Origin: Vampirovibrio sp.
GTDB lineage: Bacteria; Cyanobacteriota; Vampirovibrionia; Vampirovibrionales; JAJTHC01
DNA length: 64,000 nucleotides
Reading direction: 5' to 3'
Assembly (NCBI GenBank): GCA_050916035.1
Contig: CP050876.1
Coordinates: 1,120,635-1,184,634 of the forward strand
Part shown: piece by piece, positions 3,854 through 64,000 of the stretch
How the letters are laid out: the number at the start of each line of letters is the position of its first letter
How positions within the stretch are numbered: position 1 is the stretch's first letter
Translations under genes and position numbers: made by a program
Notes under the pieces: generated by a model
What the model was told of the DNA's origin: nothing
The model's input: only the letters and a program-made list of their open reading frames with translations
Database searches by the model: none

Positions 3854-5182
3854 GGGGGGCCTCTTTCTCTTCAATCGGGGGGAAGACTCTCCGTATAAGC
3901 ATGGCAAAGCGCAGGGGTTTATTCATCCACACAAGGGCGTATTTTTTAAAAGGCTCTACAATCGCTCCGTTTAGGAAGCCGCGTGGGTGAGCGTCGGATC
4001 TGGCGTCACGGAAGACCCCTTGTTTTGAATACCAACTTTAAAGACGGCGAATTTAAAAATTCAGCGTCTAATTTTATTTTTAATCGCCAGTCCCATTTGG
4101 ATGAATAAAAATGTTTGTATTATATGTTGTACTAAAGATGAGATTGCATAAATAATTGACGGCAAAGAATATGAGGGTAAAATACTGGATACAGTATTTA
4201 TAGATATATTTACAGGTATTATAAAGCTATTTTTAAGAGATAATTCAATGAGCATGATTAGATAGTTTACAAGAGTATATTTTGATAATTTATTGTATTC
4301 AAAAATAAAAAAATTGATCAGCATAAATAAAATAATACCTCCTAAAAAACAAAACAACGGTCGTTTAAAAGATAGTCCATAACTAGAAGTTATTCTATAT
4401 AGATGATGCCAAACTGTTTGATGTGTGGATTGCATTTGTTGAAAATAGAAATCGTTCGAAACTTGAGCCTGTCCCAACTCACTTGTAATTTTTTTTAGAT
4501 AGCTGTAAACTTCTGCTTTTGTGTCTTTGTCAGTTAGTTCTAAAGCTTTTAAAGTTAAACTGTTCAATGTTCTATAACCGTTTAGTATTGGCCAAGTGCA
4601 ATAAGCTAAATCTAAACCTTGAAACCAATTCCCATTTTTGATAGTTATTGATTTCATCTGAGACGAAGTTACATCTATACTATTCTTAGGCATCACACAA
4701 GACTCGAAAACAATTTGATCTTCTTCTTTGTTTTTTAAAGCCACAATTGTCAAACGTTTTACAGCTTCTGTAGAGATTAAAGATTTAAATAACAATTTAG
4801 GATAGTTCGCTTGTTCAAAATTAAGTATTGTTGAAAAACTTTCTTTTATAAAAATAGATTTAAAACTTACAGGATCAGCAGTATTTTTAAGTCTCATATT
4901 GTCTAACCCTAGCAAGCCTTCAAATATAGAATATTCAAATTTAAGGGGGAGCTCAAAATAAGTTTCATCCAGATCACACCACTGTTTAAAAATAGCCCTG
5001 TAAAAGTTTACTGTACCTAAAAATTCTGATGATTTAAAATAAACATTCCCCTTAAATACAGCATCGGAAAAATCTAAATTTTCAAAAAAAACGCAATTAT
5101 TTAAACTTGTATGGTTAGGTAGTGTCGACATATAAATAATGATATAATAAATCCAAGATCTAGTTGTTTTGAGGGATTTATT

Positions 5183-5539
5183 ATGAACGATTATATTCAA
5201 TACGAGTTGTCTAAAGCCCAATGGAATCAGATAAAAGAGGCTCTACCTGGTCAGTCGCATCATAGAGGACGCACTGCCGAAAACAACCGTCTTTTTGTAG
5301 AAGCGGTATTATGGATGGGGCGAAACGGGGGAAGATGGAGGTCGCTTCCCTATTATTACGGCAAGTGGAGCAGTGTTCACAAGCGCTTCATTCGTTGGGC
5401 GAAACAAGGCATTTGGCAAATGATTTTCAACACCCTTGCCACATCGGCAGATACCGAATGGCTTATGATTGATTCGACGATTATTCGCGCCCACCAGTGT
5501 TCAGCAGGGGCAAAAAAAGTGCCGGAAAACAAGCGTTAG
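5183..5539 (+). CDS. IS5-family transposase orfA (HTH part)
   Basis: 118 aa N-terminal DNA-binding part of a two-ORF IS427-like transposase. The frameshift site gggcaaaaaaagtg lies at about 5505-5518. Confidence 0.75.
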   Translation: MNDYIQYELSKAQWNQIKEALPGQSHHRGRTAENNRLFVEAVLWMGRNGGRWRSLPYYYGKWSSVHKRFIRWAKQGIWQMIFNTLATSADTEWLMIDSTIIRAHQCSAGAKKVPENKR

Positions 5540-5943
5540 GACGATCGTCAGGGGGCTATACGAGCAAGCTTCACGCCGTTTGTGACAGCCACGGCAACCC
5601 CGTTCGCTTTATCGTCACCGCAGGGCAGGTTTCCGACTCAACCCAAGCCATCCCTTTGTTAAAAGGGCTTGAAGCCACGGCGGTTTTGGCGGACAAGGGC
5701 TATGTTTCAGAACAAATATTTGAGGCGATTCACCTCATGGGGGCTGAAGTGGTCATCCCTAATAAAAGCAATGCGGTGGCTCCTCGTCAAGTCGATTACT
5801 TCCTTTACAAGGCTCGCCACTTGGTAGAAAACTTGTTTAAAGACCTTAAAAACTTCAGGCGAATGGCAACCCGTTACGATAAATTAGATGTGGCTTATTT
5901 GTCTTTTGTTCATCTTGCTTCTATTTGTTTATGGCTTAAGTAA
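5497..5943 (+). CDS. IS5-family transposase orfB (DDE catalytic part)
   Basis: 148 aa DDE_Tnp_1-like C-terminal part (ADKGY..). It overlaps orfA in a different frame, consistent with a programmed frameshift. Confidence 0.75.
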   Translation: MFSRGKKSAGKQALGRSSGGYTSKLHAVCDSHGNPVRFIVTAGQVSDSTQAIPLLKGLEATAVLADKGYVSEQIFEAIHLMGAEVVIPNKSNAVAPRQVDYFLYKARHLVENLFKDLKNFRRMATRYDKLDVAYLSFVHLASICLWLK

Positions 5944-6453
5944 ATGTCGACACTACCTAATAAAAGTGGTTTTGTTAAAATTTGCAGACCCTCTAAATTT
6001 AGACCCAATAAAATGTAAATTGTCTGCAATTGAATTTTTAATTTCTAGATTTTTATTGAATTGGCAGAGTATAAAACTTATACCTTCAGTAAAATTCGTA
6101 TTAGATAAATCTACATTCTCCGTAAAAATACTATTTGTGAAATCAAATCCAGTTTTACAACTGTGATGTTTAGGACTAATCCCTAAAATAAGAGGTGTTT
6201 TTGAAATCCATTCTTTAGATTGCATCGACACATTATAGCTATTTAGCTCAAAAATCACATAAGAGAAAGAAAAATCCAACGGTTTCTGTTCATTGTCTTC
6301 AGAGATTTGTTCGAGATGATTCTGTAAGATAAGCTCGAACGTAGCCTTATCAATAATCCTACGTCGAACACCATCTGGGCAGATAATAAATTCAGGTTGG
6401 TATAATTGCATTTTAAAGCTCCCTCGATCAAAAATAAATAAAAATACTCTCCA

Positions 6454-6687: not shown

Positions 6688-7872
6688 CTAATGAGGGAAG
6701 ACGCTGACATTACCGCCACTAACCATACAAATCACCAGTCGTGTGGGGGACGGGGACCATTCGGCGTGATGCATGGCCATATAAAGCGGCGCGCCTGACG
6801 GGCCTTCCACACGGGCCCCCAAATGACGCAAGGTTTCCTTCATGCCCCAGGCCATTTGCTCGTCATTCATTTTGGTGTGGATCACATTTAAGGCGTCAAA
6901 AATGGATTGATTACCTGCCGCAGGGGTTTTGACACGCACGGCATCCCCATATTTGGTGGACATATTATGGAGCCGAAGACCCACAAACTTCAACGACACC
7001 GACTGAAAGCGCGCCTCCCACGCGGAGGCCATGGCCAAGGCCGTGGCTGTGCCAGCCAACAAGCCCCCTCCGCCAATTGGGGAAATCAGCACCACTTCCG
7101 TAATGGCGGGATTCTGAGCCAAAATAGGCGTCAACTGTCGAAATAATTCGAGTCCAATGGTCCCCTGACCTGACACCACCCATGGGTTACTGTAAGGGTC
7201 CAAATAATAGCGTTCCCCGCCCAAGCTTTGTTCAATGGCCCATGCACGGGCGTCGTCAAAGGTATCCCCAATGTAGAGGACACTGGCGTCTACCCCCCGA
7301 TGACGCACGGCTAAAACTTTGCTATTGATGTTTTTCAGCTTAAGCGCCGCGGTATTGTTGGGCACCACAATTTGAACCGACGCAGGGCGCAACAATTCCG
7401 CAGCTTTTAAAATCCCCATGGCGTGGTTGCCTGTAGACACCGCAATAAACTGAGTCGCCCCGTAAGACAACATCGCGCGACGCATCCCGCAGAAGGCGCC
7501 CCTCATTTTATAGGCTTTAATAATGGTTTGGTCTTCTCGCTTAAAATAAAGATTCGGCGTCAAGGGGCTGGCGTCTAAGGCGGTGACGGCATGCAGGGGC
7601 AGTGAAGTCCCTGTCGTTTTGGAGCGAAGACTCAGGCTTTTACGAAAGGGGTGCATCAAGCGCTCGGCTTCTAAAATGGAGGTATACAAGTGAAGCAAGG
7701 GAATATAATGTTCAACATCTAGGCCTTCAGGCACGCTAGGCAAACTTATCCGCCCGTTGGAAGCCAGTTGCGGAAAGGCTCCCCCATTAAGGGCTTCGCT
7801 AGGAAAAAGCTGCGCTTCAAAGGGTGACGGAGAGGCAGAGGGCCGTGTTTCCATAAACGATGGAATAGGCAT
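6688..7872 (-). CDS. PLP-dependent threonine/serine dehydratase-family enzyme (fold-type II)
   Basis: TPL..YFKREDQ..AYKMRGA with the Schiff-base Lys, and a GGGGL glycine loop. About 55-aa N-terminal extension. Confidence 0.6.
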   Translation of the reverse strand: MPIPSFMETRPSASPSPFEAQLFPSEALNGGAFPQLASNGRISLPSVPEGLDVEHYIPLLHLYTSILEAERLMHPFRKSLSLRSKTTGTSLPLHAVTALDASPLTPNLYFKREDQTIIKAYKMRGAFCGMRRAMLSYGATQFIAVSTGNHAMGILKAAELLRPASVQIVVPNNTAALKLKNINSKVLAVRHRGVDASVLYIGDTFDDARAWAIEQSLGGERYYLDPYSNPWVVSGQGTIGLELFRQLTPILAQNPAITEVVLISPIGGGGLLAGTATALAMASAWEARFQSVSLKFVGLRLHNMSTKYGDAVRVKTPAAGNQSIFDALNVIHTKMNDEQMAWGMKETLRHLGARVEGPSGAPLYMAMHHAEWSPSPTRLVICMVSGGNVSVFPH

Positions 7873-8078
7873 AAGGTGTGTGGAGTTCCTTCTAAAATTG
7901 AAAAGACATACAATGACGTCTCATACTCATTAGCATAAACGTATTTTCAATTAAAAACAATGCGTTTTAAAGGATTTGTTTCATTTATGCTAAATGATGG
8001 TGATGTTGTAAAAAGGTTTCAATTTCAAGGGATATTTTGATACAGGCATGGTATACTGATAAAAAGTTTCTTTAGGAT

Positions 8079-9200
8079 GTGAAACACAGAATGTCATTGA
8101 ACAAAAACCTACACAAAGCAAAAGACTCTAAAAAAGATGAGTTTTACACACAGCTTGCAGATATTGAACGAGAGTTAAAGCACTACAAGCACCATTTTAA
8201 AGACAAAGTCGTGTATTGTAATTGTGACGACCCGAGAGTCAGCAACTTTTTTCATTATTTTTCACACAATTTTGAGTCACTGGGTTTGAAAAAACTCATG
8301 GCGACCTGCTATAAAAGCCAGCAAGTGGATTTATTTAGCCAAAATGATGTGGAACAAGCGGTGTATTTAGAGTATACAGGTGATAAAAACGGTAACTTTA
8401 TACCCGATACGGAAGAGATAGACATTAAGCCCTTGAAGGATGACGGCGATTTTCGGAGTGAAGAAAGCATAGCCCTGCTAAAACAAGCCGATATTGTGGT
8501 CACCAACCCACCCTTTTCATTATTTCGGGAATATGTCGCCCAGTTGATTGAATATGACAAACAATTTGTTATTCTAGGAAATATGAATGCCATTACCTAT
8601 AAAGAAATTTTCAAACTTATAAAAGACGGTAAGCTCTGGTTTGGTGCAAGTATTAAAAGTGGGGATAGAGAATTTGGCGTCCCCCATGACTACCCACTTA
8701 ATGCAGCGAGCTGTAGAGTAGATGAAAATGGGAATAAGTTCATTCGAGTTAAAGGTGTACGTTGGTTTACAAATTTAGATTATAAAGAACGACACGAAGA
8801 CTTGATACTGTACAAAAAATACATCCCCGAAGACTACCCCAAGTATGATAATTACGATGCCATTAACGTAGACAAAACCAAAGATATACCAATGGATTAT
8901 GAGGGTGCTATGGGTGTGCCTATTACGTTCATAGATAAATATAACCCCGAGCAATTTGATATTATTGCTTTAGGCATTGTGGGATCTATAGATTTTACAA
9001 AAAATAAAAAAATGGAAATATTAAACAAAGACGGTCGTCCCACAGGAAAATTCACTTTTAACGCAAAAGGGACTTTGTATAAAATATATAATCCAATAAT
9101 AGACATAAAACCTCCTGCGTTCCAAGATTGTGAAACTGGACAATTGTATTCTAGTATTTATGCAAGAATTATCATAAAGAACAAAAAAACATGCAAATAG
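8079..9200 (+). CDS. adenine-specific DNA methyltransferase, EcoRI-methylase family
   Basis: N-terminal KNLHKAK..KDEFYTQ..VVYCNCDDPRVSNFF is typical of the EcoRI_methylase family. The NPPF catalytic motif is present (VVTNPPFS). Confidence 0.75.
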   Translation: MKHRMSLNKNLHKAKDSKKDEFYTQLADIERELKHYKHHFKDKVVYCNCDDPRVSNFFHYFSHNFESLGLKKLMATCYKSQQVDLFSQNDVEQAVYLEYTGDKNGNFIPDTEEIDIKPLKDDGDFRSEESIALLKQADIVVTNPPFSLFREYVAQLIEYDKQFVILGNMNAITYKEIFKLIKDGKLWFGASIKSGDREFGVPHDYPLNAASCRVDENGNKFIRVKGVRWFTNLDYKERHEDLILYKKYIPEDYPKYDNYDAINVDKTKDIPMDYEGAMGVPITFIDKYNPEQFDIIALGIVGSIDFTKNKKMEILNKDGRPTGKFTFNAKGTLYKIYNPIIDIKPPAFQDCETGQLYSSIYARIIIKNKKTCK

Positions 9201-10273
9201 AACTCAAAGCAATTACCGTTCGTGAATTGACCCAAGGCTACGCCGATAACGCCGAAGGCGGTGTGGTGGGGTATAATGGCTTGCTCGATATTCGCCCCCC
9301 TTATCAACGAGAATTTGTTTATAAAGACAAACAACGAGACGCGGTGATTGAAACCATTAACCAAGATTTTCCCTTAAACGTACTCTATTGGGCAGTGCGT
9401 GAAGACGGCAAATTTGAAGTCATTGACGGTCAACAACGCACCATTTCCATTGCTCAGTACGTGAATGGCGATTTTTCCTTAAATGGGCTGTCTTTTCACA
9501 ATTTACAAAAAGATCAACGAGAAAAAATACTGAACTACACACTCATGATTTATTGGTGTACAGGCACCGATAGTGAAAAACTAGCCTGGTTTAAAATCAT
9601 TAACATTGCGGGCGAAAAGCTCACCGAACAAGAACTTAGAAACGCCGTTTATTCGGGTTCTTGGGTAACGGATGCCAAACGCTATTTCAGTAAAAACGGT
9701 TGTGCCGCTTATAGTATTGGGGGGGCTTACTTAAACGGCAGTGCCATTCGGCAAGATTATTTTGAAACCGCCATCAAATGGATTAGCTCCGATAAAATAG
9801 AAGACTACATGTCAACACATCAACACGACCCCAACGCCAACGAACTATGGCTTTATTTTACAAGCGTAATGAATTGGGTAAAAGTGGTCTTTCCCACCTA
9901 TCGTAAAGAAATGAAGGGCATCGATTGGGGATTCCTTTATAACGAATTTAAAGCTCAAAACTTTGATTCAGCAAAACTAGAGCAAGACGTTTCCGAACTG
10001 ATGCAAGATGAAGATGTCACCAAGAAAAGCGGTATTTACAGTTACGTTTTAACCCGAAAAGAAAAGTATCTCAATATACGAGCCTTTAGCCCAAGTCAAA
10101 AACGAGAAGCCTTTGAACGGCAAAAAAGCGTTTGTGTGGTGTGCAAGCAAACATTCAAAATTGAAGACATGGAAGCGGACCACATTACCCCTTGGCATGA
10201 AGGCGGAAAGACGGATGCAAAAAACTGCCAAATGCTTTGCAAAGAAGACAACCGCCGAAAATCAGGGAAATAA
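9191..10273 (+). CDS. DUF262 (ParB-like nuclease, DGQQR motif) + C-terminal HNH endonuclease domain protein
   Basis: IDGQQRT motif of DUF262. The C-terminus CVVCKQ..EADHITPWHEGGKTDAKNCQMLCKEDN is an HNH motif. Its ATG overlaps the stop of the upstream methyltransferase (ATGCAAATAG). Confidence 0.7.
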   Translation: MQIELKAITVRELTQGYADNAEGGVVGYNGLLDIRPPYQREFVYKDKQRDAVIETINQDFPLNVLYWAVREDGKFEVIDGQQRTISIAQYVNGDFSLNGLSFHNLQKDQREKILNYTLMIYWCTGTDSEKLAWFKIINIAGEKLTEQELRNAVYSGSWVTDAKRYFSKNGCAAYSIGGAYLNGSAIRQDYFETAIKWISSDKIEDYMSTHQHDPNANELWLYFTSVMNWVKVVFPTYRKEMKGIDWGFLYNEFKAQNFDSAKLEQDVSELMQDEDVTKKSGIYSYVLTRKEKYLNIRAFSPSQKREAFERQKSVCVVCKQTFKIEDMEADHITPWHEGGKTDAKNCQMLCKEDNRRKSGK

Positions 10274-10552
10274 TCTCCTCAATACAGGGATTCAAGCGTC
10301 AACTACAGCGACAAATTCAAGGGGGTGTCTTCGAGTTCGGGGAGTGCTTCTAGTGGGGCATTTAAGGCTTCTAGGTTGTCCCATGTATCAACAGGTTGTC
10401 GTGGGGGGTGTCGCCTACGGTTTCTATTTGTTTAAGTAACCTAAAGGGTATGCTTTCGTGGGCGTGCAGGGCTTCTTCCTTGCCTGTACACTGTTAACAA
10501 AGGTTAGTTTTTATCGTATAATGCTTTTCATTGAAGCGAAAGGAGTATTATA

Positions 10553-10897
10553 ATGTCTCTAGATAAAAGGCTTTACCCCTTAGAAGACACTCGGTTTCTT
10601 AAAGAAATAGAACCACTGATCCAGCAGTCCTATATTTGGAAGGGGAGACCCCCCAAAGTATCCCACTATAATGTCTTTTGTGCCGTCCTCTATGTTTTAA
10701 GAACAGGCATTGCGTGGCGGGACCTGCCTAAGGAATTCGGCAATTGGCACACCATTTATACTCGTTTTTCACGGTGGAGCGAAAAAGGATTGTGGTGGAA
10801 AATCCTCTATACCCTGCAATCGCAAAGAAAAATGACCCTCGATGTCGTCATGCTAGACAGCACCACCTTTAAAGTTCACCGTCACGGAGGCGGTTAA
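10553..10897 (+). CDS. IS5-family transposase orfA
   Basis: 114 aa. The GIAWRDLP motif is shared with IS5/IS427 transposases. Confidence 0.65.
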   Translation: MSLDKRLYPLEDTRFLKEIEPLIQQSYIWKGRPPKVSHYNVFCAVLYVLRTGIAWRDLPKEFGNWHTIYTRFSRWSEKGLWWKILYTLQSQRKMTLDVVMLDSTTFKVHRHGGG

Positions 10898-10955
10898 AAG
10901 GGGGTTTCAAAGCAAAGGGAAATCCGTTGCAGGCATTACCACCAAGCTTCATCTC

Positions 10956-11264
10956 TTGATTTCAAGCGGCTTTCAAGTCATCGAAGAGGTTTTAAGTGGT
11001 GGCAACACGCATGACGTTTGTTTTGCAGACCAATTAACGGAAAACATTTACGGTTGCGCTGTTTTGGCTGACAAGAGTTACGACAGCGATCCGTATCGTC
11101 AAAGACTTTTTTCTCGAAACAATAAACCTGTGATTCCAGGTAGGGAAGGTCGAAAAACGCCTATTGTGTATGATAAAAAACTTTACAAAGCGCGTAGAAA
11201 TATTGAATTATTATTTGGAAGAATCAAGGAGCAGAAGCGTGAAGCGTTTGGTGGCTCGTTTTGA
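10956..11264 (+). CDS. IS5-family transposase orfB (DDE part), possibly frameshift-fused to orfA
   Basis: 102 aa with ADKSYDSD and YKARRNIELLFGRIKE, the DDE_Tnp_1 C-terminal signature. Confidence 0.65.
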   Translation: MISSGFQVIEEVLSGGNTHDVCFADQLTENIYGCAVLADKSYDSDPYRQRLFSRNNKPVIPGREGRKTPIVYDKKLYKARRNIELLFGRIKEQKREAFGGSF

Positions 11265-11381
11265 GACGTCTGACCTTCATTTTCTTTCGGTTATTGCGAT
11301 GGCCTTTATTAAAAACTGGCTTAAACTAAACCTTTGTTAACAATTACTAATCCCTCATCAAGGAACCCCTGTAGACGGCCA

Positions 11382-18451: not shown

Positions 18452-19297
18452 TTAGGTAGTGTCGACATATAAATAATGATATAATAAATCCAAGATCTAG
18501 TTGTTTTGAGGGATTTATTATGAACGATTATATTCAATACGAGTTGTCTAAAGCCCAATGGAATCAGATAAAAGAGGCTCTACCTGGTCAGTCGCATCAT
18601 AGAGGACGCACTGCCGAAAACAACCGTCTTTTTGTAGAAGCGGTATTATGGATGGGGCGAAACGGGGGAAGATGGAGGTCGCTTCCCTATTATTACGGCA
18701 AGTGGAGCAGTGTTCACAAGCGCTTCATTCGTTGGGCGAAACAAGGCATTTGGCAAATGATTTTCAACACCCTTGCCACATCGGCAGATACCGAATGGCT
18801 TATGATTGATTCGACGATTATTCGCGCCCACCAGTGTTCAGCAGGGGCAAAAAAAGTGCCGGAAAACAAGCGTTAGGACGATCGTCAGGGGGCTATACGA
18901 GTAAGCTTCACGCCGTTTGTGACAGCCACGGCAACCCCGTTCGCTTTATCGTCACCGCAGGGCAGGTTTCCGACTCAACCCAAGCCATCCCTTTGTTAAA
19001 AGGGCTTGAAGCCACGGCGGTTTTGGCGGACAAGGGCTATGTTTCAGAACAAATATTTGAGGCGATTCACCTCATGGGGGCTGAAGTGGTCATCCCTAAT
19101 AAAAGCAATGCGGTGGCTCCTCGTCAAGTCGATTACTTCCTTTACAAGGCTCGCCACTTGGTAGAAAACTTGTTTAAAGACCTTAAAAACTTCAGGCGAA
19201 TGGCAACCCGTTACGATAAATTAGATGTGGCTTATTTGTCTTTTGTTCATCTTGCTTCTATTTGTTTATGGCTTAAGTAAATGTCGACACTACCTAA
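18452..19297 (+). mobile_element. IS5-family (IS427-like) element, copy 2, 846 bp
   Basis: Same 17-bp IRs as copy 1. orfA is 18520-18876 and orfB is 18834-19280. There is one synonymous difference from copy 1 (agc vs agt). It is inserted just after the hairpin CCCCCTT..AAGGGGG downstream of pdxA. Confidence 0.85.
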
Positions 19298-19393
19298 GCA
19301 ATTTGTCTAAATATAAAACGTTTATATAGGGGAACCGCATTTCATTCCTTTATTTTTTGATATAGAGATCAATTGAGAGAGAGAACCCAAATT

Positions 19394-63089: not shown

Positions 63090-63585
63090 AATGAAGTCTT
63101 TCAGGCTCCGAGACACCACCTTCCATAGCTTTCTCAGGGTTTTAAGGCCACGACAACCCACTTCCCAGTCAAGGGTTCGTCGCGTTTCTCGACACAGAGC
63201 CAGCCATACCCATATTTTGCGTTTTTTTAGTCAAAAAAGTGCAGAGCTCATCCAGTTCAAGCACGGTGACGGGTTGCGGTTCGAGCCGAGAGCCTGAGCT
63301 GTCCATTTTTCGAATTTGTTTAAGCACCGCCACTGTAGAAACCCCAATTATTTTCCCAATTTGGCGGAGGGAAACCCCCGACAAATAGAGATTTCTGGCA
63401 AGCTCCCACAAGTGCGGAGCAAGCCCCTTGGGGGTAGAACGTGTATATTAACAGGGACAATTTTTGCATTGATAGCGTTGGTTTTCGCCAATAAATACTG
63501 CTTTGACTTTGTCAAAACTACCACATTTGGCACACTGCCTTTTATAGTACTCCTTAATAGACTTAAGGAGTATTATAAAAGCTAT
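63090..63585 (-). pseudogene. IS1-family (InsA/InsB-like) transposase remnant
   Basis: The minus strand encodes the C..CAKCGSFDKVK..RYQCKNC zinc-finger and the GVSLRQIGKIIGVSTVAVLKQIRKM HTH of InsA, then an InsB N-terminal ELDELCTFLTKKTQ. It is interrupted by stops. Confidence 0.55.
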
Positions 63586-64000
63586 TTAGGTAGTGTCGAC
63601 ATTTACTTAAGCCATAAACAAATAGAAGCAAGATGAACAAAAGACAAATAAGCCACATCTAATTTATCGTAACGGGTTGCCATTCGCCTGAAGTTTTTAA
63701 GGTCTTTAAACAAGTTTTCTACCAAGTGGCGAGCCTTGTAAAGGAAGTAATCGACTTGACGAGGAGCCACCGCATTGCTTTTATTAGGGATGACCACTTC
63801 AGCCCCCATGAGGTGAATCGCCTCAAATATTTGTTCTGAAACATAGCCCTTGTCCGCCAAAACCGCCGTGGCTTCAAGCCCTTTTAACAAAGGGATGGCT
63901 TGGGTTGAGTCGGAAACCTGCCCTGCGGTGACGATAAAGCGAACGGGGTTGCCGTGGCTGTCACAAACGGCGTGAAGCTTGCTCGTATAGCCCCCTGACG
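63586..64000 (-). mobile_element. IS5-family (IS427-like) element, copy 3, reverse orientation, truncated by window end
   Basis: Begins with the IR TTAGGTAGTGTCGACAT at 63586. orfB (63603-63890, minus) is identical to orfB of copies 1 and 2. Confidence 0.85.

Follow-up and report, generated by a model that had tools for sequence, protein, structure and literature searches.

This work indicates that a locus of Vampirovibrio sp., lying within a 64,000-nucleotide stretch of contig CP050876.1 (hereafter the window, whose numbering is used throughout), is probably a self-contained, horizontally mobile restriction-modification (RM) module, in which two translationally coupled genes would provide a methylase and a nuclease and methylation would protect the host DNA. 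Both genes are intact, the domains of their products are identified, the genes overlap, their pairing is obligate in hundreds of taxa and on mobile elements of several kinds, and they lie in a transfer unit of 2.25 kb; the window copy is thus an intact, ordinary instance of a widespread, horizontally mobile RM module. In the mechanism that we favour, an N6-adenine methyltransferase of the monomer type, belonging to the M.EcoRI family, would mark the host DNA, its most probable target, judging from homology, being the second A in sites with an AATT core, and a compact GmrSD-like endonuclease, in which a helical linker joins a ParB/Srx-type DUF262 domain to a zinc-bound HNH domain, would cut or nick unmarked DNA. 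Because the nuclease gene starts within the end of the methylase gene, the nuclease would depend for its synthesis on the methylase being translated first, and the fold of the DUF262 domain suggests that, as in BrxU, GmrSD and SspE, it probably binds a nucleotide and acts as a gate on the HNH domain.

The methylase gene lies on the + strand at 8091-9200, starting either at GTG 8079 or at ATG 8091 and ending at a stop at 9200, and its ATG-8091 form (369 aa) is 100% identical with the deposited protein P0391, 'modification methylase [Vampirovibrio sp.]'. The Pfam family PF13651 (EcoRI_methylase) covers it over the complete profile (positions 1-345 of 345, E=1.8e-144), which bears out the family assignment of the initial annotation, and the PADLOC profile MTase_II (PDLC03297) matches it with E=5.5e-126. 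It is 57% identical over aa 2-292 with M.EcoRI, whose reference gene adjoins that of R.EcoRI on the E. coli plasmid NZ_OW967970, and the two enzymes share the N-terminal DEFYTQ (aa 16-21, 8136-8153), the NPPF motif (aa 139-142, 8505-8516) and the C-terminal Y.RI.IKNK. The full-length PF13651 match, the NPPF motif and the M.EcoRI identity together identify an N6-adenine DNA methyltransferase, and because of that identity an AATT-core site is probably its mark. According to palindrome-avoidance statistics, neither the window nor 755 kb of host flanks shows depletion of any AATT-core palindrome; GAATTC has an observed/expected ratio of 0.74 in the flanks and of 1.04 in the window, and many unrelated palindromes are lower. 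The missing depletion is at most a point against the RM reading, as a recently acquired system need not leave such a trace.

The nuclease gene (9191-10273, + strand, 360 aa) fuses a ParB/Srx-like DUF262 domain, also named GmrSD_N, with the motifs RPPYQREF and DGQQR (PF03235, aa 34-154, 9290-9652, E=2.9e-18; DGQQR at aa 79-83, 9425-9439) to a C-terminal HNH (His-Me finger) nuclease domain (PF01844, aa 315-358, 10133-10264, E=2.2e-12), where a DH...N...N motif is accompanied by two cysteine pairs (C315/C318 and C346/C350) forming a four-cysteine zinc site. The fusion had been read from the letters beforehand, and the profile searches recovered all three expected families, DUF262, HNH and EcoRI_methylase. 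The PADLOC profile REase_II (PDLC03418), a curated Type II endonuclease family, spans the nuclease end to end (aa 1-360 against profile positions 1-372 of 372, E=4.9e-139). Both module proteins thus match the Type II profiles of PADLOC-DB, and therefore standard defence finders would call the locus 'RM type II'; the RM profiles of PADLOC are presumably derived from REBASE reference sequences. The domains, these matches and the overlap of the genes support the earlier suggestion of an RM-like module to which no specificity was assigned.

Structural comparison places the DUF262 domain near the CTP-binding domains of ParB/Noc, sulfiredoxin and BrxU, with no Foldseek match below E=0.01, and BrxU is the best overall fold match of the nuclease. 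Because the fold matches these families, the domain may bind NTP, which raises the possibility of an NTP dependence that would be atypical for Type II. Sequence and profile searches of the PDB with the nuclease returned only generic HNH domains, among them the Gme HNH nickase 4h9d (E=6e-4 alone, 1e-6 with the family profile). The architecture of the nuclease is absent from the solved Type II enzymes, and the folds closest to it belong to DUF262 nucleases that are Type IV or phosphorothioate-linked. R.LcaA2P was considered as a characterised prototype and was rejected, as it is a relative of I-HmuI and does not belong to the DUF262-HNH family. In the literature searched, including the Type II classification (PMC2441816), the His-Me finger survey (PMC5714182), the phylogenomics of GmrSD (PMC4619093) and reviews, we found neither a description of a DUF262-HNH nuclease paired with an EcoRI-family methylase nor a study of self/foreign discrimination by a nuclease of this family.

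The two genes share the stretch ATGCAAATAG (9191-9200, + strand), read directly, in which the nuclease ATG occupies 9191-9193 and the methylase TAG 9198-9200, so that the methylase ends 7 nt past the nuclease ATG; the overlap claimed at first sight is therefore real. An overlapping stop/start is usually the family norm, occurring in 43 of 78 related genomic loci (38 of the 43 being of the 4-nt ATGA type), and mostly 0-24 nt separate the two genes in the remainder. Given the overlap, the nuclease would be made after the methylase has been translated, and this would fit the need for host protection first. Of the related loci, 156 could be tested, 78 genomic and 78 viral, and each has a methylase adjoining the nuclease, so that the synteny foreseen for the pair holds throughout; the methylase immediately precedes the nuclease on the same strand in 155 (77 of the genomic and 78 of the viral loci) and lies downstream in a single genomic one. 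Even where the nucleases are 40-44% identical, as on plasmids of Lactiplantibacillus and Enterococcus and in a Flavobacterium phage, the pairing is kept, and when searched from the methylase side, a nuclease follows in three of three homologues. The separate, adjacent methylase and endonuclease genes expected of Type II systems are thus present, on the same strand and overlapping.

The initial annotation had taken this architecture to be atypical, a view contradicted by the existence of the PADLOC Type II profiles and by the wide occurrence of the pair, in at least 592 species representatives and 167 IMG/VR contigs, on plasmids and in a phage. The homologous proteins form more than 8000 clusters, which span bacterial phyla and DPANN archaea at identities of 66-89%, and the pair is among the most promiscuously transferred and widely distributed two-gene modules sampled. 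Carriers include small plasmids of 7-11 kb, a carriage typical of addictive RM systems. In the window, DNA homology to other copies of the module is limited to 8031-10283, a transferred unit of about 2.25 kb with a GC content of 0.39 vs 0.45-0.53 in the flanks, and both the low GC and the limited homology support its foreign origin. A second Vampirovibrio genome holds the module between unrelated genes.

The module was compared with several known systems. Some methylases of the family bear a C-terminal cassette of the M.EcoRI type (type 1), whereas that of the window methylase is of type 3 and has 67 aa; moreover, the DUF262-HNH nuclease is unrelated to R.EcoRI, there is no EcoRI-like PD-(D/E)XK partner, and the order is methylase to nuclease with an overlap, but nuclease to methylase in the EcoRI system. 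The nuclease shares the DUF262 (GmrS) domain and its DGQQR motif with GmrSD; however, it has 360 aa vs about 580 in GmrSD/BrxU, carries a canonical PF01844 HNH with a zinc site in place of DUF1524, and has an obligate methylase partner where those nucleases stand alone. In SspE (SspABCD-SspE) and DndI the mark is a phosphorothioate made by a multi-gene pathway, whereas that of the module would be m6A made by a single methylase, and the nuclease domain family and protein size differ as well. From Type III and Type IIG/L systems and phasevarions (Mod/Res, MmeI family) the window differs in having neither a helicase-like Res nor a fused polypeptide, and a dependence of the nuclease on its methylase is, in the module, hypothetical.

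The methylase C-terminus bears on how the two proteins may cooperate. A hypervariable cassette (8974-9155, + strand, aa ~295-355) lies between the conserved motifs MGVPITF.DKYNP.QF and YARI.IKNK, and the other Vampirovibrio copy (L084), whose cassette is of type 0, is homologous up to 8973 and again from 9156. The cassette is modelled as confident beta structure (pLDDT 83-95), and its type is common to three other loci (L090, L091 and L093). About 70 paired methylases carry at least 23 unrelated types between them, beside nucleases that remain 63-86% identical; nuclease identity is the same within (0.712) and between (0.714) types, and none of 323 nuclease columns follows the cassette type (z at most 4.3). 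In one MAG there are two modules whose nucleases are 86% identical and whose cassettes differ, and relatives in R. bromii switch three alternative cassettes via a (GACA)n repeat while keeping a single nuclease. Such simple-repeat phase switches are present in relatives, and no tandem or simple repeat was found in the window at 7800-10500. Since the cassettes do not co-vary with the nuclease, the nuclease itself may not read DNA sequence. Unless every cassette has the same specificity, such variation fits poorly with a pair of partners that each recognise sequence independently.

These observations are where a methylase-guided restriction would find support, namely that a nuclease without its own sequence reader works in a complex with the methylase, like Type III Res with Mod or the Type IIG/L fusions, and that the swappable cassette sets both specificities. 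Overlapping genes would give stoichiometric co-synthesis, natural fusion proteins of EcoRI_methylase, GmrSD_N and HNH exist (P0279), and the identities of the methylase core and the nuclease correlate (r=0.68), which could reflect an interface but is also expected from plain co-inheritance; this co-divergence and the fusions speak for the favoured RM module as well. However, the role of the cassette as specificity determinant is itself hypothetical, the enzymes of the M.EcoRI family act alone, M.EcoRI has an unrelated endonuclease partner, and Cj0208, a member of the same family, is an orphan methylase (PMC4687069), which counts against this reading; we regard it as doubtful. The many cassette types beside one nuclease would also be accommodated if the DUF262 domain sensed host m6A, as an SspE-type effector might, and thereby licensed non-specific nicking of unmarked invader DNA, the methylase being both activator and protector. 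SspE, a DUF262 nuclease whose function is coupled to a modification module of its host (PMC12707154; PMC13251355), offers the precedent. Yet an m6A-binding pocket is hypothetical, the C-terminal domain is a PF01844 HNH and not DUF1524, and 360 aa compare with about 560-600 aa for SspE and BrxU, so that this mode of action appears improbable. In a broader form, which we consider possible if clearly less than probable, the DUF262-HNH protein may itself be blind to sequence and gated by nucleotide, with its targets supplied entirely by the partner methylase, through a complex or through m6A sensing; the recombining cassette, phase-switchable in some lineages, would then reprogramme both activities, and the pair would be a distinct minimal RM class on a GmrSD-type effector.

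A modification-dependent Type IV nuclease of the GmrSD kind, standing beside an unrelated orphan methylase, is suggested by the Pfam name of its DUF262 domain and by BrxU as top fold match, but is hardly tenable. The adjacency in every testable locus, in the same strand and order in all except one and with overlapping codons in most, and the fusion proteins argue against it, as does the lack of DUF1524 (GmrD; PF07510) in the Pfam search of the nuclease, whose C-terminus is a PF01844/PF14279 HNH. In addition, a nuclease attacking m6A would be suicidal beside an active adenine methylase, and by inference the module nuclease cannot depend on adenine methylation; this reading was rejected on the obligate methylase pairing. 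The spread of the module could also be taken for that of a selfish homing-type cassette, whose HNH nuclease chiefly drives its own spread or its maintenance by post-segregational killing, with defence secondary, and the high identity across phyla and DPANN archaea, the unrelated insertion sites without an integrase and the carriage by small plasmids and viruses would agree with it. Nevertheless, neither a conserved target site nor flanking repeats were seen at the module ends, and we hold it to be highly improbable as a separate explanation, for it is compatible with the RM module proposed here and not a true alternative to it. Selfish maintenance is reportedly known behaviour of Type II systems from Kobayashi's work.

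Being a further intact example of an RM module already catalogued, the window instance matters little alone, and the family is more interesting than the instance, having been transferred widely across bacteria, DPANN archaea, plasmids and viruses, with methylase cassettes that shuffle independently of a near-constant nuclease in the present data. If the nuclease does borrow its specificity from the methylase, the pair would offer a simple, naturally modular scaffold for programmable restriction and a mechanistic link between Type II methylases and GmrSD/SspE-type effectors.

Upstream of the methylase, homology to L084 starts at 8031, and the leader of the module (8031-8090, + strand) contains the extended -10-like element TGGTATACT (8049-8057), 34 nt before the methylase ATG, which may function as a promoter; conservation of the leader, TGGTATA(C/T)T included, links the window to L084 and does not extend to other lineages. 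The initial annotation had proposed a divergent AT-rich promoter region shared with a PLP enzyme, of which the AT-rich intergenic region (7873-8090, GC 0.307) and the divergent PLP gene (6688-7872, - strand, PALP E=7.4e-31) stand, but only the -10-like element is conserved with L084. The PLP gene, with a GC content of 0.53, lies between the left IS element and the pair; the ORFs flanking the pair encode the PLP enzyme, IS elements and an M23 peptidase, with no dnd/ssp modification genes.

Both flanking elements belong to the IS5 family, having a two-ORF transposase (DUF4096 + DDE_Tnp_1) and terminal inverted repeats, at the positions first given for them; they are context and not part of the module. 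The left, IS427-like one (5115-5960, + strand, 17-bp inverted repeats) has further copies at 18452-19310 and, inverted, at 63573-64000, three in the window, and interrupts a low-GC pentapeptide-repeat gene, in which in-silico excision restores a 514-codon frame. The right one (10493-11341, + strand, 13-bp inverted repeats) is different, is single-copy in the window and lies 209 nt downstream of the end of the module homology. A composite transposon or IS-bounded island, as the pair had been described, was rejected, because the two elements differ, the left one sits inside another gene and the homology covers 8031-10283 only. The Vampirovibrio genome of the window is IS-rich, and the module forms a low-GC block within it.

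The window carries, on the + strand, an EcoRI-family adenine methylase gene at 8091-9200 (ATG start, with an in-frame GTG further upstream at 8079) and a DUF262-HNH nuclease gene at 9191-10273, and the ORF listing and domain scans reproduced, almost to the base, the ORFs, domains and overlap that the initial annotation had described. The methylase is a whole-profile match to Pfam EcoRI_methylase (domain scan, E=1.8e-144) and is 100% identical to the database protein 'modification methylase [Vampirovibrio sp.]', and the 360-aa nuclease combines GmrSD_N/DUF262 at aa 34-154 with HNH at aa 315-358 (domain scan). The nuclease ATG (9191-9193) lies 5 nt ahead of the methylase TAG (9198-9200), within ATGCAAATAG. 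Both genes look intact, because every residue invariant in the homologue alignments is retained in the two window proteins. Around the pair, the two IS5-family elements (5115-5960 and 10493-11341), the oppositely oriented PLP enzyme gene (6688-7872; domain scan) and the AT-rich spacer (GC 0.307) separating it from the pair are likewise present as had been claimed; elsewhere in the window, a flagellin gene and one resembling LdpA are consistent with a Vampirovibrio source.

The possibility, raised in the initial annotation, that the two genes are never syntenic elsewhere is firmly rejected. An EcoRI-family methylase adjoins the nuclease in 78 of the 80 best genomic loci (of at least 592), the remaining two having less than 180 nt of upstream DNA, where pairing is not assessable, and in all 78 testable loci among the best 80 of 167 viral contigs, so that adjacency holds in 78/78 testable loci of either kind. 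Overlap of stop and start is seen at 43 of these 78 genomic loci, at 38 of them with the 4-nt ATGA type, and the others mostly have a gap of 0-24 nt; the methylase lies downstream of the nuclease in one locus, and in three Rickettsiales/Alphaproteobacteria MAGs (L032, L040, L046) a Bro-N gene of ~270 aa uncouples the two genes by 818 nt. Searching from the methylase instead, the three best long-contig homologues were all followed by a 360/361-aa GmrSD_N+HNH gene, and the pairing is still present down to ~40% nuclease identity. Two homologous proteins, P0279 (688 aa; EcoRI_methylase, GmrSD_N and HNH) and P0387 (515 aa; EcoRI_methylase and GmrSD_N), are predicted as single polypeptides, either as true fusions or through read-through in gene calling.

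The pair is very common. The nuclease has >8000 homologous clusters at 90% identity, the best 120 of which are 75-96% identical and usually 360 aa long, and 518 representatives with E≤1e-30 at 50% clustering. With one genome per species scanned, the at least 592 confirmed loci, many of the compared ones being MAG contigs, come from most bacterial phyla as well as Pacearchaeota and Micrarchaeota, still at 66-77% nuclease identity; the picking of loci by nuclease similarity biases nuclease identities upward. Plasmids also carry the pair (PLSDB): those from Lactobacillaceae and Enterococcus are 7-11 kb, those from Actinomycetota and Pseudomonadota larger. The 167 viral contigs with a relative (IMG/VR) are joined by a Flavobacterium siphovirus in which the pair forms an insert adjoining the tape-measure gene.

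The locus would act as a Type II RM system does, and it is filed as such by current tools, PADLOC assigning the nuclease end-to-end to REase_II (E=4.9e-139) and the methylase to MTase_II; weaker PADLOC matches of the nuclease, to NsnA and PD-T4-2_A, cover the DUF262 part only. As the family already has a full-length profile, the window copy is a further case of a known module, and no publication on the EcoRI-methylase/DUF262-HNH pairing was found in the literature searched. The nuclease model is confident (mean pLDDT 87.7), with a predicted fold in which a helical middle region lies between a ParB/Srx-like domain and an HNH finger, and fold comparison returned no solved Type II enzyme with this architecture. 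Although alike in fold to the DUF262 nucleases GmrSD, BrxU and SspE, the window nuclease lacks two features that define GmrSD, namely a DUF1524 domain and modification-dependent action as a stand-alone protein. In practice, the first of these absences together with the obligate methylase partner rules out a Type IV reading. Among GmrSD proteins, the most enriched neighbours include Type I RM domains, not EcoRI_methylase (PMC4619093, Table 1). We propose a methylation-protected restriction module as the simplest account, in which the methylase would mark self DNA and the DUF262-HNH enzyme would attack unmarked DNA. Through translational coupling, the nuclease would be made only upon methylase translation, and DUF262 could gate the HNH domain via nucleotide, judging by its likeness to BrxU, GmrSD and SspE (PMC12707154).

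Judged by its sequence, the window methylase is a genuine EcoRI-family member, with 57% identity over aa 2-292 to a methylase encoded on an E. coli plasmid of 5.6 kb, next to a gene annotated 'type-2 restriction enzyme EcoRI'; a sequence search found no methylase relative in the PDB. Since M.EcoRI is specific for GAATTC and Cj0208 for RAATTY, the latter methylating motif position 3 (PMC4687069), we infer that the window methylase targets an AATT-core m6A site.

The module had been placed in an 'IS-bracketed island', and this did not hold in the sense proposed. The two flanking IS elements differ, nucleotide homology with any other module copy is restricted to 8031-10283, and in a second Vampirovibrio genome (L084) the module, with no IS in its vicinity, lies between an ahpC-like and an rsmB-like gene; the mobile unit is therefore the 2.25-kb pair itself (GC 0.387) plus a ~60 nt leader, in which the extended -10-like TGGTATACT is kept in both Vampirovibrio copies. 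The left IS (5115-5960), separated from the pair by the PLP gene (GC 0.53), interrupts a pentapeptide-repeat gene at 4061-6411 (GC 0.29-0.31), whose 514-codon frame is restored once the IS and a 2-bp duplication are removed; the gene, low in GC, looks like another insert of foreign origin, separate from the module. The 846-bp IS5-family element within it occurs three times in 64 kb (5115-5960, 18452-19310 and 63573-64000; 98-100% identical), so the genome is IS-rich.

Unexpectedly, the family has a hypervariable C-terminal methylase cassette of 21-90 aa between the conserved motifs MGVPITF.DKYNP.QF and Y.RI.IKNK (in the window, aa ~295-355, 8974-9155). Among ~70 paired methylases at least 23 mutually unrelated cassette types occur, an approximate count, as types were grouped by short-sequence BLAST; the M.EcoRI type is one of them, and the window type is common to L090, L091 and L093. 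The two Vampirovibrio copies have the leader in common, a methylase core 76% and a nuclease 81% identical, and unrelated cassettes, with homology breakpoints exactly at the cassette edges. One Bacteroidia MAG (Co_bin.288) holds two modules (L002 and L005) with 86% identical nucleases and unrelated cassettes; a mixture of strains binned together might also account for this.

Nuclease identity follows methylase-core identity (r=0.68) but not cassette similarity (r=0.10, partial r=0.06); it is 0.712 within and 0.714 between cassette types, and a column scan of the paired loci found no nuclease column tracking cassette type. In the methylase core, the sole column strongly tracking it is D253 (about 8847-8849; z=10.7, next 3.8), a candidate contact of core with cassette. 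Either the cassette would be a non-specificity element, all members having one site, or the nuclease would read no sequence itself and depend on the methylase or its mark. We regard such a sequence-blind nuclease as rather unlikely; co-inheritance alone explains the core/nuclease correlation.

Relatives also carry simple repeats, of which the window copy has none. Five Ruminococcus bromii-type contigs (L085-L089) have an otherwise identical locus with (GACA)n, n = 7, 9, 14, 14 and 27, in the methylase gene that precedes the one for DUF262-HNH (about 5520-6011, locus coordinates). All three frames past the tract are open, each to a different complete methylase C-terminal cassette, and a single one stops on the nuclease ATG; from this arrangement the tract looks like a three-way phase switch. 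Among six loci of unrelated lineages (L048, L131, L141, L093, L173, L154), methylase genes contain (GAAGA)10, (CGGCA)12, (AG)12 and G11, C16 lies just upstream of one methylase start, and G22 lies in one nuclease gene. It is the cassettes and the repeat switches that merit further work.

As a separate observation, CCGG is strongly depleted across the window (1-64000; 21 observed vs 123 expected, O/E 0.17), which suggests that a restriction system specific for CCGG, encoded elsewhere, has acted on this genome for a long time.
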